Sequence record: OR228483.1
Source of the DNA: Escherichia phage pO2
Length of the DNA stretch: 39,037 nucleotides
Strand: one strand, 5' to 3'
Shown: positions 120 to 30,944 of the stretch, piece after piece
Layout: each line of letters opens with the position of its first letter
How positions within the stretch are numbered: position 1 is the stretch's first letter
The notes under the pieces: generated by a model
Seen by the model: the letters and a program-made list of their open reading frames with translations, nothing else
The model's database searches: none
What the model was told of the DNA's origin: nothing
Position numbers and translations under genes: made by a program

Positions 120-237
120 CTGTAGGTCTTTGACTGTAGGATGTGAGTGTCTTATGGTTGATACTGTAGGTTAGTCAGACTGTAGGTTGTAGGACTGTAG
201 GTTGTAGGACTGTAGGTTATAGGACCTATGGTTATAC
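120..237. repeat. Cluster of short CTGTAGG(T) direct repeats, including four tandem 15-bp units (GACTGTAGGTTGTAG-like) at 178..237; analogous in position to the short repeat arrays near T7 genome ends
   Basis: CTGTAGG at 120, 134, 164, 180, 195 and 210; 15-bp period read directly; lies beyond the last gene at the genome right end. Confidence 0.6.
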
Positions 238-10009: not shown

Positions 10010-12292
10010 TTACTCCTTACTAATTAGTACGTTTGCGATACCCTCCAGTGAGACGTCATTGTACATCCCACCGCGCTTCTCGATGTTGGCCTCTCGGTCA
10101 GCTCGACGTTTGTCACCAGCAGCCTTAGTCCCGACGATACGCGCTCGCTTGTTAGCGTCACGTTCTGCCTGAGCGTATGCGGCATCTTGTGCCTTCTGCT
10201 GTTGTTCGCGGTAGAGTTTACCTACAAGTTCTTTATCGTAGCGAATACGAATAGTCCCCGTAGCGTCTTGGAGGAAGATAGAGCCGTTCTGTTCAACAAC
10301 GGACAACTGAGAGTTCACTACCCAAGGGTTGGCCTTAATGAGCTGCTTACGAGCGGTGTCGATAATGTCTCGACCAACCTGCCACGACTCTGGGTTATCC
10401 CCGACCATAAGCTGGTGTTTGGACACCATGCCGATGGACTTACCATCAGAACCCTCAGACTGGAACGTTACGGTGTTCTCATTCAGCCAGCGTTGAGTCT
10501 GCTGAGTTGCAGCGTCAGCGTTACCTGTACGATAGTACCATGAGTCCCAGACCTTACGAGCACTTGCGTCCAGAGACGTAGGAAGACGCGAAAGGTCCTT
10601 ATTCCGAGAGTCGTTCTTCAACTCCTGCCACGCCTTGTCTGACTCAATGCGCATCTCACGGCTTTGACTTGCAGCTTGCTTATCAGCTTCAATCATCGTC
10701 TGAGGGTCCAGACCCATCTTGTCCATCTGGTCGAACGTAGAGAACAACTGAGCTTGGTCAGGATACAGAGCAGAAAAACTTGAAGGGTCCTGAGTGTAGG
10801 CACGACGAAGAGATTCGAAGCGTTGCATCTTGTCTGGGTCGTACTGCCCACGGATGACCGCAGCTTGCCACTCACCAGCAGCGTCCTGAGTCAGCGTCTG
10901 GAAGGCATTACGGAACGGACCGTTGTTAGTGTCAGCTCTTAATAATGCAACCTTCTGTGCGTCCTTAGCAGCCTCAGGGATGTCCATCTGGTCAATCTGC
11001 TGTAGCTTAGCAGACGCATAGTTGTTCATGTCTGAACGCTTGAACTCTCCTGTGGATTCAGAGACCGGAAGGTCCTCATAGTTGGTGGACACGTTGTCTC
11101 CAGCCAGACGTCGCTGATAAACTTGGTCTATGACCAGTTGCTTGTTCTGGGTCTGGATTAACTTAGTGTTCTCCTTTGCCTGTTCAGCAGACTTACGCTT
11201 GACCGCTTCCAGTAAGCTGGCTTCTGCATTAATAAGCATCTGACGCTGAGGCGTTAGTTCTTCACCCGGCTGAAGCAGGTTGTTCTGCTCCTTGAGTTTC
11301 TGAATCTGGGCCAGACCGATGGTTGGGTCATCCTGAAGAATCGCAGACTGAACGCCTAACGACAAGTCTTCCTGATACTTAGCCACCAGTTTATACTCAG
11401 TACCTTGGGCCTCAACCATAGCAGCATTGAAGACGTCAGGTCCTACAATCTCTTCGATGGTAGCGTCAACACCGTTAAGGGTGATACGCTCGCCACGGAC
11501 TTGCTGTAGGAAGTTTGAGCCTCCTGACTTCTGGATTGCGTCACGGACCGTCTGGGTGATGACCTCTCGTGCTCTCTGGTCCGAAGGTATAGCAGCAGTC
11601 GTCAATCCATCCCGAAGGTAGGCCATGAATGTCTTGCCAGACTCAGGTGAACGCATCAGGTCGCCATCGTTCAGGAATGAGTTCATCTCAATACGAGTGT
11701 TCAACATTGCTGTCTCTTCAGACTGCTTGCTGAAATACTTATTGAAAGACCCATAGATAGCGATGTTGCGGTCTGTGATGTTATCGTTGAACCCACGCTG
11801 GAAGAACTCGTCTGTAGGGTTAATACCCGACTCTTCAGCATAGGACTTAGCGGCATCCTGAAGTCGCTGGTGGCGATACTCTTCCATTTCCTGACGTGTG
11901 CGGAACTCACCGTTCTGAATCTTAACGTTAATCTCGTCGTCTACAGCAAAGGCAGCATTACGACCAGTCTTGACTCGAAGTGCTTCCATAGCGTAAGGGT
12001 CATCCTGATACAGCAATGTGCCGTTCTGGATAGCCTCACGTCTTTGCTGAGGTGTCAGTTTACGGATAATCTCGTTAGACCGCTCGTCGGCCCGTGTCTT
12101 TTCATCGTCCTTGAACTGCTTGTACAATCCAGTCCCAGACTCAACGAAGTTGGTTAACGCACGAGCCAGACCGGAGTCACCAGTCGGAGCCTGAACGCTG
12201 GCTGCTTGATAGTTTACGGCGATAGTTTTACCCGGCGCTCTGCCGCGACCCATAGTCCGATTAGCCAGAGCTGATTCAATATTACTAGCCAT
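10010..12292 (-). CDS. gp15: Internal virion protein C
   Basis: 760 aa, T7 gp15-like size and position; AGAGGAGG before ATG. Confidence 0.85.
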   Translation of the reverse strand: MASNIESALANRTMGRGRAPGKTIAVNYQAASVQAPTGDSGLARALTNFVESGTGLYKQFKDDEKTRADERSNEIIRKLTPQQRREAIQNGTLLYQDDPYAMEALRVKTGRNAAFAVDDEINVKIQNGEFRTRQEMEEYRHQRLQDAAKSYAEESGINPTDEFFQRGFNDNITDRNIAIYGSFNKYFSKQSEETAMLNTRIEMNSFLNDGDLMRSPESGKTFMAYLRDGLTTAAIPSDQRAREVITQTVRDAIQKSGGSNFLQQVRGERITLNGVDATIEEIVGPDVFNAAMVEAQGTEYKLVAKYQEDLSLGVQSAILQDDPTIGLAQIQKLKEQNNLLQPGEELTPQRQMLINAEASLLEAVKRKSAEQAKENTKLIQTQNKQLVIDQVYQRRLAGDNVSTNYEDLPVSESTGEFKRSDMNNYASAKLQQIDQMDIPEAAKDAQKVALLRADTNNGPFRNAFQTLTQDAAGEWQAAVIRGQYDPDKMQRFESLRRAYTQDPSSFSALYPDQAQLFSTFDQMDKMGLDPQTMIEADKQAASQSREMRIESDKAWQELKNDSRNKDLSRLPTSLDASARKVWDSWYYRTGNADAATQQTQRWLNENTVTFQSEGSDGKSIGMVSKHQLMVGDNPESWQVGRDIIDTARKQLIKANPWVVNSQLSVVEQNGSIFLQDATGTIRIRYDKELVGKLYREQQQKAQDAAYAQAERDANKRARIVGTKAAGDKRRADREANIEKRGGMYNDVSLEGIANVLISKE

Positions 12293-28018: not shown

Positions 28019-28041
28019 CATCCCTAAGGTGATAGTTTAGG
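28019..28041 (-). promoter_or_regulatory. Variant phage promoter (phi4-like), CACCTTAGGG in place of CACTATAGGG
   Basis: + strand TCCCTAAGGTGATAGTTTAGG upstream of gene 4. Confidence 0.5.
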
Positions 28042-28252
28042 CTTTGAAGAACTGAGCCAACTGGTCAGCTTTGGTGTCAGCTTGACGTGCCTTCATGCCA
28101 GCTTCCAGTGACGCGATGGTCAGCTTGTCAGCCAGAGCAGCAGCATCAGCCGCACTGTCAGCAGTCTTCTTTTCTACCTTTCGTTCCAGTACCGCAGCAC
28201 GACGATAACCACGCACCACCAGACGACCAAGAAATTCGATAAGTTTAATCAT
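28037..28252 (-). CDS. Hypothetical protein, 71 aa
   Basis: ORF between HNH endonuclease and primase; Ala/Lys-rich, no recognisable motif. Confidence 0.5.
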   Translation of the reverse strand: MIKLIEFLGRLVVRGYRRAAVLERKVEKKTADSAADAAALADKLTIASLEAGMKARQADTKADQLAQFFKA

Positions 28253-28688
28253 TGAGTTGTTCTCCTAGCCATTCGATGGCTTCATTAGATGTTTTGAAAG
28301 ACTTCGACGTCCTCTCGCCAAAGCGCTGCTTGTGTGCTACATAAGGCTTAGTTCTGCCAGCTCTGTATGCTACACCCTTGATGCCAGACTTTGAGTCCTT
28401 CCTAACGCTGGTGTTGCATACGTTGACTTGCCTAGTCACAATCCTGAGGTTGTCAATCCTGTTGTTATGGCCGTCACGGTCAATATGGTCAACTTCCATT
28501 CCATCTGGTATAGGACCTCCAGTTTTGAGCATCATGATTATGACGTGGCACATTACTGGCTTCCCTTTAACCTTAGTCCTCCAATATCTACCAGCGTCCC
28601 ATCCAGTAGGCTTACCATTTCTGGATAGACCTGAGGGACTAGATGGGTCGATACTAAACTGATTCGCGGTCAGATGTAACCAGTTCAT
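28245..28688 (-). CDS. HNH homing-endonuclease-like protein with C-terminal AP2-like DNA-binding region
   Basis: EVDHIDRDGHNNRIDNLRIVTRQVN HNH motif; C-terminal GIKGVAYRAGRTKPYVAHKQRFGERT...SNEAIEWL; overlaps lysozyme 3-prime end by about 35 nt. Confidence 0.8.
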   Translation of the reverse strand: MNWLHLTANQFSIDPSSPSGLSRNGKPTGWDAGRYWRTKVKGKPVMCHVIIMMLKTGGPIPDGMEVDHIDRDGHNNRIDNLRIVTRQVNVCNTSVRKDSKSGIKGVAYRAGRTKPYVAHKQRFGERTSKSFKTSNEAIEWLGEQLND

Positions 28689-29118
28689 TCTTGGTCCACC
28701 AGCGCTTCACGTCGAAACTTGGACAGGCTTTGGCTGCTACTGAATGATGGGCCATTAGCTCTGCATTAGGGTACTTACTCATAAGCTCCTCCAGCTTGTT
28801 GCGCAGGGAGTTCATCTGGGCCGGAGTGAAGTTAGCTTCAAACTTGCCCTTAGCGTCAATTCCACCTACAAGGCAGACGCCTACAGACCGTGAGTTCCAG
28901 TCCTTAACGTGTGACCCTACGACATTGACCGGGCGACCCTCTTCCACAGTGCCATCTCGCTTGATGATAAAGTGGTAGCCTACGTCCAGCCAGCCTTGCT
29001 GCTTGTGCCACATACGGATGGTCTCTACCCCGATGTCCATATCTGGCTTGGTAGCAGAACAGTGAACGAAGATAGCGTCAGTCCGGGACCGTGGTTTGAA
29101 TTGAACTTTACTTACCAT
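28654..29118 (-). CDS. gp3.5: Lysozyme (N-acetylmuramoyl-L-alanine amidase)
   Basis: 154 aa; near-identical blocks to T7 gp3.5 (DAIFVHCSATKP, GWLDVGYHFIIKRDGTVE, KACPSFD, WTKNELVTSDR). Confidence 0.95.
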   Translation of the reverse strand: MVSKVQFKPRSRTDAIFVHCSATKPDMDIGVETIRMWHKQQGWLDVGYHFIIKRDGTVEEGRPVNVVGSHVKDWNSRSVGVCLVGGIDAKGKFEANFTPAQMNSLRNKLEELMSKYPNAELMAHHSVAAKACPSFDVKRWWTKNELVTSDRESV

Positions 29119-29578
29119 TGTACACCACCAGCTCTACTACGACCAGATTCAGATGTGACTGGAAGCGCTGTGCGTCAGTCGTGTGCATCTGGAGCAACTT
29201 ATGGTTGAAGACGTGAGAGTTGCTAATCTTCACGTACACTTCGTCAGGCTTACCGTGGACGATGAACGTCTGACCTACACCAATCTTGTTGATGGTCAGG
29301 ACTTCACGTTTAACGGTGACAGGAGGGACACTTGAGGCTGGCAGGACTTGCGGTTTATCCTCTACAATTTCCTCAAGATTTGCTTTTTCAACCCACGCCC
29401 CCCACATACCGTCAGGCTGAGTGTTAAAACCTGCTGCTCCGTGCTTGTAGTGGCCCCGCTCAGTGGATTCCACCAGGACAATTCCAGATGCTGGATATGG
29501 GTCTTTCGCACATTTCGTAACGATAGTACCTTTAGGCCACCCGTAGCAACTAACCTTAAGTCTATATTTCTGAGTCAT
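29108..29578 (-). CDS. Hypothetical protein, 156 aa
   Basis: Between endonuclease I and lysozyme; ATG at 29578 overlaps gp3 stop, AAAGGAG upstream; no motif recognised. Confidence 0.6.
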   Translation of the reverse strand: MTQKYRLKVSCYGWPKGTIVTKCAKDPYPASGIVLVESTERGHYKHGAAGFNTQPDGMWGAWVEKANLEEIVEDKPQVLPASSVPPVTVKREVLTINKIGVGQTFIVHGKPDEVYVKISNSHVFNHKLLQMHTTDAQRFQSHLNLVVVELVVYNGK

Positions 29579-30030
29579 CACTTAACTCCTTTCTTCTTGG
29601 GGATGAGGATACCTGAAGGCAGACGTACAGTCGCCTCTCGCAGCCACTCAACCGGGATGAACTTATCGGCATACTTATATCCGTTCTTTTCGCACCATGC
29701 GCCATACGTGGTCGGAGACCCTTTGTATAACTTGGAGCGGGAACTTGAGAACACGAACCGGATGTCTAACTCTGGGTGCTGTTCTCGTACCAGAAGGTGC
29801 TTCTTACGGTCATCACTATCGAAGATACCTTTGGTCTCCACGATGATACCGTTAGGAAGGATAAAGTCTGGTGTGTACTTGTGGTCGGAAGCCGGAATCA
29901 CATAGTTGATATAATGGCTTTCGTACTCCGCTTTGACGCCGTTCTGTTCCAGCCACTGCTGGTTCTTGGCTTCAAGTCCAGAGCGGTAGGCACCCACAGA
30001 GTGCCCCCGTTTTGCAGACCATTGGGCCAT
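29578..30030 (-). CDS. gp3: Endonuclease I (Holliday junction resolvase)
   Basis: 150 aa; strong identity to T7 gp3 (FRSGLE, YVIPAS, YTPDF, PNGIIVETKG, DDRKKHLLVREQHPELDIR). Confidence 0.95.
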   Translation of the reverse strand: MAQWSAKRGHSVGAYRSGLEAKNQQWLEQNGVKAEYESHYINYVIPASDHKYTPDFILPNGIIVETKGIFDSDDRKKHLLVREQHPELDIRFVFSSSRSKLYKGSPTTYGAWCEKNGYKYADKFIPVEWLREATVRLPSGILIPKKKGVK

Positions 30031-30768: not shown

Positions 30769-30791
30769 CTGTCCTACAGTGATAGTTAGGT
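30769..30791 (-). promoter_or_regulatory. Variant phage promoter (phi2.5-like), CACTGTAGGA
   Basis: + strand GTCCTACAGTGATAGTTAGG upstream of gp2.5; overlaps gp2 stop. Confidence 0.5.
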
Positions 30792-30944
30792 CTCAGGACG
30801 AATCCGTCCGACCACAAACCCAGCGTCCTCATACTCTTGGGACTTCAGGGTAGCCTCTTCAAGAGACTTTGCGTACACAGGAACCTCGAAGGACTGAACG
30901 CGACCCTCAAGCTCCACGATGTATTTCTTCTCAACCTCAGTCAT
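30786..30944 (-). CDS. gp2: Inhibitor of host RNA polymerase (gp2)
   Basis: 52 aa, hand-found: [35 protein letters not shown] matches T7 gp2 ([35 protein letters not shown]); AAGGAGA before ATG. Confidence 0.75.

Follow-up and report, generated by a model that had tools for sequence, protein, structure and literature searches.

The window, i.e. the whole stretch of DNA that was analysed, is 39,037 nt long (OR228483.1) and represents a Kayfunavirus (K1F-like, Studiervirinae) genome in reverse orientation. Its closest match is phage IME177, with 95% identity across 92% of a 19-kb query. On its minus strand, a gene of the gp3.2 family is situated between the genes for endonuclease I and the amidase. 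The features of this locus and of its surroundings are the following:

1002, 6104, 13380, 17927, 18923, 21744, ~28023, 30773, ~31754, 33479 and 36557, minus-strand reading: copies of the repeat CTAAACTATCACTATAGG
about 28023-28040: next downstream candidate promoter copy, preceding gene 4 (repeat family D1/D2)
28654-29118, minus strand: amidase gene gp3.5 (Amidase_2 lysozyme; Pfam Amidase_2)
29108-29129, minus strand: overlap and coupling of gp3.2 and the amidase gene, with the gp3.5 ATG and ribosome-binding site within the final gp3.2 codons
29108-29578, minus strand: coding sequence of the gp3.2 family, 156 codons plus TAA (ORF list, PHROG 16385, homologues, dN/dS)
29111-29314, minus strand: C-terminal core domain, aa 89-156, family-defining, predicted SH3-like barrel
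29315-29362, minus strand: Pro-rich linker, aa 73-88 (…KPQVLPASSVPPVT), from alignments, dN/dS of 0.12 and low pLDDT
29363-29578, minus strand: N-terminal 'type A' cassette, aa 1-72, predicted SH3-like barrel
29578-30030, minus strand: endonuclease I gene (T7-type; Pfam Phage_endo_I, E 3e-81)
29586-29591, minus strand: Shine-Dalgarno sequence AAGGAG of gp3.2, within the final endonuclease I codons, as read from the sequence
30773-30799, minus strand: closest upstream candidate promoter of the phage RNA polymerase, preceding gene 2.5 (repeat family D1/D2)

The original prediction had placed a well-supported ORF of 156 codons at exactly these coordinates, with a good ribosome-binding site and translational coupling to gene 3, and all of this was borne out. 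The coding sequence extends from an ATG (29578-29576) to a TAA (29110-29108); the mechanical ORF start is a GTG at 29581, one codon 5' of this ATG, and homologues start at the ATG (MTQK or MSKK). The AAGGAG motif is located 7 nt before the start codon. The ATG overlaps the endonuclease I stop, the two having one A in common (TGATG; …AAG TGA / ATG ACT…). At the other end of the gene, the final 11 nt (29108-29118) double as the start of the amidase gene, whose ATG occupies 29118-29116 and whose ribosome-binding site GGTGGTG (29129-29123) sits inside the last gp3.2 codons (…ELVVYNGK and stop). This overlap arrangement is also annotated in relatives, and the extra constraint from the amidase ribosome-binding site and start is limited to the final ~7 gp3.2 codons. 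In T7, base 10706 is at once the end of gene 3 and the start of gene 3.5; the two genes abut with no ORF between them, in agreement with the earlier statement that T7 has no counterpart of gp3.2.

Across 20 aligned loci, the endonuclease I and amidase genes had mean pairwise dN/dS values of 0.126 and 0.102, respectively, and gp3.2 one of 0.20. Because of this value, and because 255 homologues were detected and about 220 phage records carry the gene at one locus, gp3.2 is a genuine coding gene under purifying selection and not a chance ORF.

As for transcription, a repeat family reading CTAAACTATCACTATAGG on the minus strand is present in eleven copies in the genome. From their likeness to T7-group promoters, these repeats are presumably promoters of the phage RNA polymerase. 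Promoter copies stand before gene 2.5 and then next before gene 4, and gp3.2 therefore belongs to the class II (middle) unit 2.5-3-3.2-3.5-HNH-3.7, with the identities of neighbouring genes taken from Pfam. In the repeat family scan, no copy was detected between 28040 and 30773, hence none inside gp3.2. An internal promoter was considered as the cause of C-domain conservation and rejected, given this empty interval and the variation of synonymous sites in the C-domain (dS 0.40).

Several observations were made on the neighbouring genes. The 3' end of the amidase gene is overlapped by 35 nt (28654-28688) by an ORF resembling HNH_3 homing endonucleases (147 aa; PF13392; 28245-28688, minus strand). 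Most relatives have an amidase of 152 aa, versus 154 aa here; at the DNA level, identity of the amidase gene is about 85-88% with most of them and 75% with the most distant one, while endonuclease I, located two genes away, shows 96-99.8% with most relatives. The amidase/HNH region looks like a mosaic boundary, possibly resulting from homing-associated co-conversion. In Salmonella phage PRF-SP4 (locus L002, 1697-2146), a different HNH-type ORF (149 aa) lies between gp3.2 and the amidase gene. Since this ORF begins at the 11-nt overlap position normally taken by the amidase start, the gp3.2/3.5 junction seems to be a recurrent point of homing endonuclease insertion. Downstream of the HNH gene, and before the candidate promoter of gene 4, lies a 71-aa gp3.7-like ORF (28037-28252, minus strand) with no Pfam match, a further small class II gene that is uncharacterised. 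Finally, near one end of the window (178-236 and 397-425), a 15-nt unit GACTGTAGGTTGTAG is tandemly repeated three to four times (repeat family D5), which recalls the short repeats found close to the ends of T7-group genomes.

Family membership and distribution

As a gene, gp3.2 is not new, being already catalogued as the uncharacterised gp3.2 of phages K1F and EcoDS1. Its sole PHROG matches, both labelled 'unknown function', were phrog_16385 (E 3.4e-93; residues 1-156 on profile positions 1-157 of 157) and the 74-aa family phrog_15211 (E 3.4e-40; residues 87-156). K1F gp3.2, EcoDS1 gp3.2 and CR44b 3.01 were identified as orthologues by tblastn, and the protein is 94% identical to database proteins. 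A full-length profile match, synteny and the core motif all place it in the gp3.2 family. In GenBank, the gene was found in 219-220 phage records, always at one locus and always annotated as hypothetical. In this genome and its relatives, it follows directly after endonuclease I and usually overlaps the amidase start.

None of the 255 homologues has a function name. Pfam gave no match for the whole protein at E <= 1, and a limit of E <= 10 gave none either for the individual domains or for four divergent relatives. NCBIfam, PADLOC and PDB (searched by sequence and by profile) contained no relative, which agrees with the earlier remark that no motif could be recognised in the protein. When 1.84 billion cluster representatives were searched exhaustively by HMM, only 17 clusters were recovered, none of them outside T7-like phages, and a profile search with divergent C-domains added just two further distant members. 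All gp3.2 carriers whose genomic context was checked are T7-like phages. A distant branch comprised Providencia phages and a metagenomic contig, in which the gene is again located after gp2, gp2.5 and endonuclease I.

No named anti-defence protein was present among the 255 homologues or the 17 clusters, and PADLOC, which holds defence models only, gave no match. The original prediction had treated gp3.2 as an accessory gene, and remote-homology and structure searches indeed revealed no homology to a known housekeeping phage protein: there was no T7 orthologue and no replication, recombination or lysis family match in Pfam, NCBIfam or PDB. In the literature searched (on gp3.2, its PHROGs and anti-defence in Kayfunavirus), no functional study was found, and the single mention of gp3.2 was a row of a genome table (PMC4925675). 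As far as this literature shows, the core-plus-cassette anatomy and the positional hypervariability presented below had not been described previously.

Two records with unexpected host names, MT350292.1 (Enterococcus phage EFA-1) and PV615262.1 (Acinetobacter phage vB_Aba_01KA), contained a Kayfunavirus gp3.2 of 79-91% identity. In both, gp3.2 adjoins a T7-type amidase gene, and EFA-1 also has an endonuclease I gene. The Gram-positive and Acinetobacter host labels of these records look doubtful.

Core domain, linker and N-terminal cassettes

Full-length coverage of gp3.2 was found in just 55 of the approximately 220 phage records. In Dev2, ST38 and many others, the complete gene, of 74 aa, encodes nothing but the C-terminal domain, and about half of the phages carry the core without an N-module. 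The C-terminal domain of about 70 aa, basic and nearly invariant, acts as the family's autonomous core. Its hallmark is the invariant motif VG..F…Y…SNSHxFN….QMHTT…RF, represented here by G102, F105, Y115, S119-H122, F124, N125, Q130-T134, R138 and F139. The pI of the core is ~9.5 (9.7 in the short form), versus a near-neutral 7.8 for the N-domain. The Pro-rich linker (…PQVLPASSVPPVTVKR…) is common to the long forms, whatever N-module precedes it, and absent from the 74-aa short forms. Synthesis of a free C-domain from an internal start was rejected, since no ATG or GTG occurs in codons 61-100, a stretch that includes the linker and in which the Val codons are GTC, GTT or GTA.

At least eight unrelated N-terminal cassettes precede the common linker and core. 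Type A is carried by this genome, type B by PRF-SP4 and P0125, and type C by P0126 and P0130; further types are represented by P0124, P0127, P0129, P0136 and P0144. Sometimes two modules are combined in one protein of 220-227 aa (P0082 with A+C, P0113 with A+B). Cassettes A, B and C were present in 55, 21 and 27 records, respectively, at one place per record and solely at the gp3.2 locus. In comparison with EcoDS1, gene 3 showed 98.2% nucleotide identity, the N-domain 60.2% and the C-domain 85.3%. When different module types are aligned, identity of the N region is 0.47-0.50, which by judgement, without a control, is about chance level. The last 150 nt of gene 3, on the other hand, are 75-97% identical (87-97% at most loci) and the core 75-92%. 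Judging from these alignments, the N-module is a cassette between conserved flanks at the DNA level.

In three variants (P0123, P0137 and P0139), in-frame deletions affect the N-domain and leave the C-domain in place. Together with P0122, these come from metagenomic or Logan assemblies in which the type A N-domain is frameshifted or deleted in frame while linker and core are intact; they could be assembly errors or real losses of the module.

There is a sharp contrast in evolutionary rate between the two domains. Regional dN/dS was 0.305 for the N-domain (dN 0.237, dS 0.775), 0.12 for the linker and 0.097 for the C-domain. Within type A, an invariant framework (GWPxGTIVTKC, DP, LVE, KHG, QPxGMWGAW) alternates with hypervariable positions (9, 11, 28, 30-33, 43 and 64-67). 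Among 115 cluster representatives, positions 9, 11, 28, 30, 31, 43 and 64 were each occupied by 16-17 different residues, beside invariant neighbours. Twenty N-domain positions were invariant across 37 sequences, down to 73% overall identity, and in phage records N-domain identity drops to about 55%.

In a parsimony count, the 30 loop codons of the N-domain had an omega of 1.0-1.2 and the 42 framework codons 0.14-0.16. The loop value was not significantly above 1 (P = 0.12 and 0.66), with the loop set picked post hoc and recombination ignored. Diversifying selection on the loops is thus suggested rather than demonstrated, and relaxed constraint on the loops would explain the omega figures equally well. 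A diversity-generating retroelement as the source of hypervariability was ruled out on general grounds: the variation is allelic between phages, and T7-like genomes of ~39 kb such as these are not known to encode reverse transcriptase.

As for hosts, type A belongs mostly to E. coli phages: it was found in 38 of 86 Escherichia-named records, 7 of 17 'Kayfunavirus' records, 1 of 59 Salmonella records and none of the 18 Enterobacter records, and type B was carried by 20 phages of Salmonella Typhi and Paratyphi. The host distribution of the cassettes is skewed, but confounded by phage phylogeny and sampling.

Predicted fold and possible roles of gp3.2

Both domains of gp3.2 are predicted to be SH3-like small beta-barrels. 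Structure comparison of the predicted domains recovered a five-strand barrel, with weak and generic matches (Z no more than 6.1 and 5.0); the best matches of the core include EF-P domain I, ribosomal L2, eIF5A, RimP, Tudor and KOW. Fold neighbours in BFVD were uncharacterised small phage proteins only. By sequence, the Pfam SH3 clan, including SH3, SH3b and DUF7244, gave no match even at E <= 10. Internal duplication as the origin of the N- and C-domains was rejected (hhalign probability of 0.1%). So was a 2H phosphoesterase: QMHTT resembles one HxT motif, but the motif is single, the domain has only ~70 aa and no 2H fold was matched. Since no enzyme signature was found in Pfam, NCBIfam, PADLOC or PDB searches, nothing suggests that gp3.2 is an enzyme.

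In the model strand order, the hypervariable positions fall into the beta1-beta2, beta2-beta3 and long beta3-beta4 loops and into the 3-10 turn before beta5. From the order of secondary structures, not from coordinates, the beta1-beta2 loop would be equivalent to the RT loop and beta2-beta3 to the n-Src loop. In canonical SH3 domains, it is the RT, n-Src and 3-10 elements that form the ligand face.

Our preferred reading, which we hold tentatively, is that gp3.2 is a non-enzymatic adaptor or inhibitor, whose constant core would bind an invariant partner and whose swappable hypervariable N-module would recognise a host ligand differing between strains. It would thus be an adaptor-like, accessory two-barrel binding protein of class II, i.e. 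of the middle, DNA-metabolism period. The core barrel (aa ~89-156) probably binds a host-invariant partner, be it a component of the phage or a conserved macromolecule of the host, and its ligand is possibly nucleic acid. The N-terminal barrel (aa 1-72) would be an exchangeable cassette on the Pro-rich linker, its framework displaying the hypervariable loop residues. The most likely target of this module would be a cytoplasmic host factor that varies between strains, with components of host immunity as the most plausible candidates. The factor might then be sequestered, inhibited or brought to the partner of the core.

Binding by either domain, the identities of the ligands and a role in counter-defence or host takeover are what we infer here. 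The core/cassette pattern suggests a role in host-specific interaction. The proposal made at the outset, that a gene at this position might modulate host functions, would fit the cassette-like hypervariable N-domain and the host skew. The N-module itself is dispensable in many hosts, since roughly half of the phages lack one.

Alternatively, gp3.2 might be a nucleic-acid-binding accessory of phage DNA metabolism, which we consider rather unlikely. Its SH3-like, KOW- or Tudor-type core would bind DNA or RNA, and the N-cassette would be a loosely constrained appendage. That the core would tune recombination, replication or the handling of the host nucleoid alongside gp2.5 and endonuclease I appears similarly improbable. 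The basic pI of the core (9.5-9.7) and the nucleic-acid- and ribosome-binding barrels among its fold matches point in this direction, and the invariant Ser, Asn, His, Thr and Arg residues might suit phosphate contacts. Moreover, gp3.2 shares one transcription unit with gp2.5 and is translationally coupled to endonuclease I, and T4 MotB offers a precedent (PMC7827196). However, the cassettes are left unexplained.

A bolder form of the adaptor or inhibitor reading, to which we would likewise give only a rather small chance, takes gp3.2 as a plug-and-play platform for counter-defence. A core of fixed activity would dock onto a conserved phage or host machine, or sequester a ligand via its SNSH/QMHTT/RF surface. 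N-terminal SH3-like 'warheads' would be swapped by recombination between the conserved end of gene 3 and the linker, and their antibody-like loops would keep pace with immune proteins that are specific to strains of E. coli, Salmonella and other hosts. If true, this would be a phage-side analogue of the modularity of polymorphic toxins and immune receptors, and a compact natural binder scaffold.

It is quite unlikely that gp3.2 is an auxiliary of the amidase gp3.5 encoded next to it, with a stand-alone SH3-type core that binds peptidoglycan, the amidase or the complex of amidase and RNA polymerase, and thereby tunes lysis or late transcription. Enterobacterial peptidoglycan is taken to differ little from strain to strain and would not select a hypervariable N-domain. 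The T7 amidase, moreover, works without any gp3.2-like partner. The gp3.2 and amidase genes of PRF-SP4 have an HNH gene between them, and divergence of the C-domain is uncorrelated with that of the amidase (Spearman 0.03). No obvious N-terminal signal sequence can be read in gp3.2. The idea draws on analogy with SH3b domains and with the stand-alone SH3 protein DUF7244 of T1-like phages (PMC13164509), but neither DUF7244 nor SH3b was matched in Pfam at E <= 10.

Even less probable is that the N-domain is a liability or a neutral passenger on a solely functional core, its variability arising from escape of sensing host defences or from loop drift: loop omega of about 1 is what neutrality predicts, repeated in-frame deletions and a frameshift (P0122, P0123, P0137 and P0139) spare the core and many phages have the core alone, but the framework is strongly constrained (omega 0.14-0.16), the 20 invariant N-domain positions persist across the 37 sequences, and at least eight modules, sometimes two together, were recruited to one position, which argues that an N-module has been repeatedly selected for.

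Going back to gp3.2 as a non-enzymatic binder with a constant core and a swappable N-module, what is added here is that a fixed core with exchangeable hypervariable SH3-like modules turns an ORFan into a testable hypothesis. This arrangement lies in a stretch of DNA that is otherwise 96-99% conserved among therapeutic-type (K1F-like) coliphages. If N-modules decide success on particular strains, they would be intracellular determinants of host range, relevant to the choice and engineering of therapy phages, and the allele-rich scaffold would point to host targets, possibly immune proteins. If the variation of the N-domain is neutral, gp3.2 would be one more small accessory protein.

Comparison with known systems

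The closest counterparts are K1F and EcoDS1 gp3.2 and CR44b 3.01 (PHROG 16385), orthologues of a like length class that lie between gene 3 and gene 3.5. They share 74-81% overall identity with the gp3.2 analysed here, and their C-domains are nearly identical to it. Structurally they do not differ; the divergence is found at the hypervariable positions of the N-domain, a half of the protein with about 57-71% identity. The 74-aa proteins of PHROG 15211 in Cronobacter phage Dev2, Salmonella phage ST38 and Citrobacter phages SH3-5 have the core, the locus and the overlaps in common with gp3.2. They differ in having neither linker nor N-module, and their first strand reads IPVGYAF instead of IGVGQTF.

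As for the fold, the predicted five-strand topology of gp3.2 is shared with the SH3 domains of spectrin, Grb2 and Src and with the SH3-like barrels of FeoA and the DtxR C-terminus. In the models, the sites of the N-domain variable positions match the RT, n-Src and 3-10 elements of canonical SH3 domains.

DUF7244 is a stand-alone SH3 protein encoded beside the lysis cassette of T1-like Drexlerviridae, and its function is only hypothesised (PMC13164509). It resembles gp3.2 (whose fold is predicted) as a small SH3-fold coliphage protein encoded next to the gene of a cell-wall hydrolase; the two have in common their accessory ('shell') status and, sometimes, an HNH gene nearby. Unlike DUF7244, gp3.2 resides in a DNA-metabolism operon, not in a holin-endolysin-spanin cassette, and has a cassette architecture; there is no sequence match between the two.

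T4 MotB, with predicted KOW and OB domains, binds DNA non-specifically and perturbs H-NS (PMC7827196). Both it and gp3.2 are early or middle proteins of about 160 aa with two predicted small beta-barrels and no homologues of known function. MotB, however, is highly conserved over its entire length among T-even phages and has no swappable module, and the two proteins show no sequence similarity.

Finally, Nip of Bacillus phage phi3T inhibits SpbK, a TIR NADase, purely by binding this immune protein (PMC11984713). Nip and gp3.2 are both accessory phage proteins with two predicted SH3-like domains each; Nip differs in its length (279 aa), its C-terminal HU-like dimerisation domain and its origin from a temperate Bacillus phage. 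By analogy of mechanism, not by relationship, gp3.2 may work like Nip.
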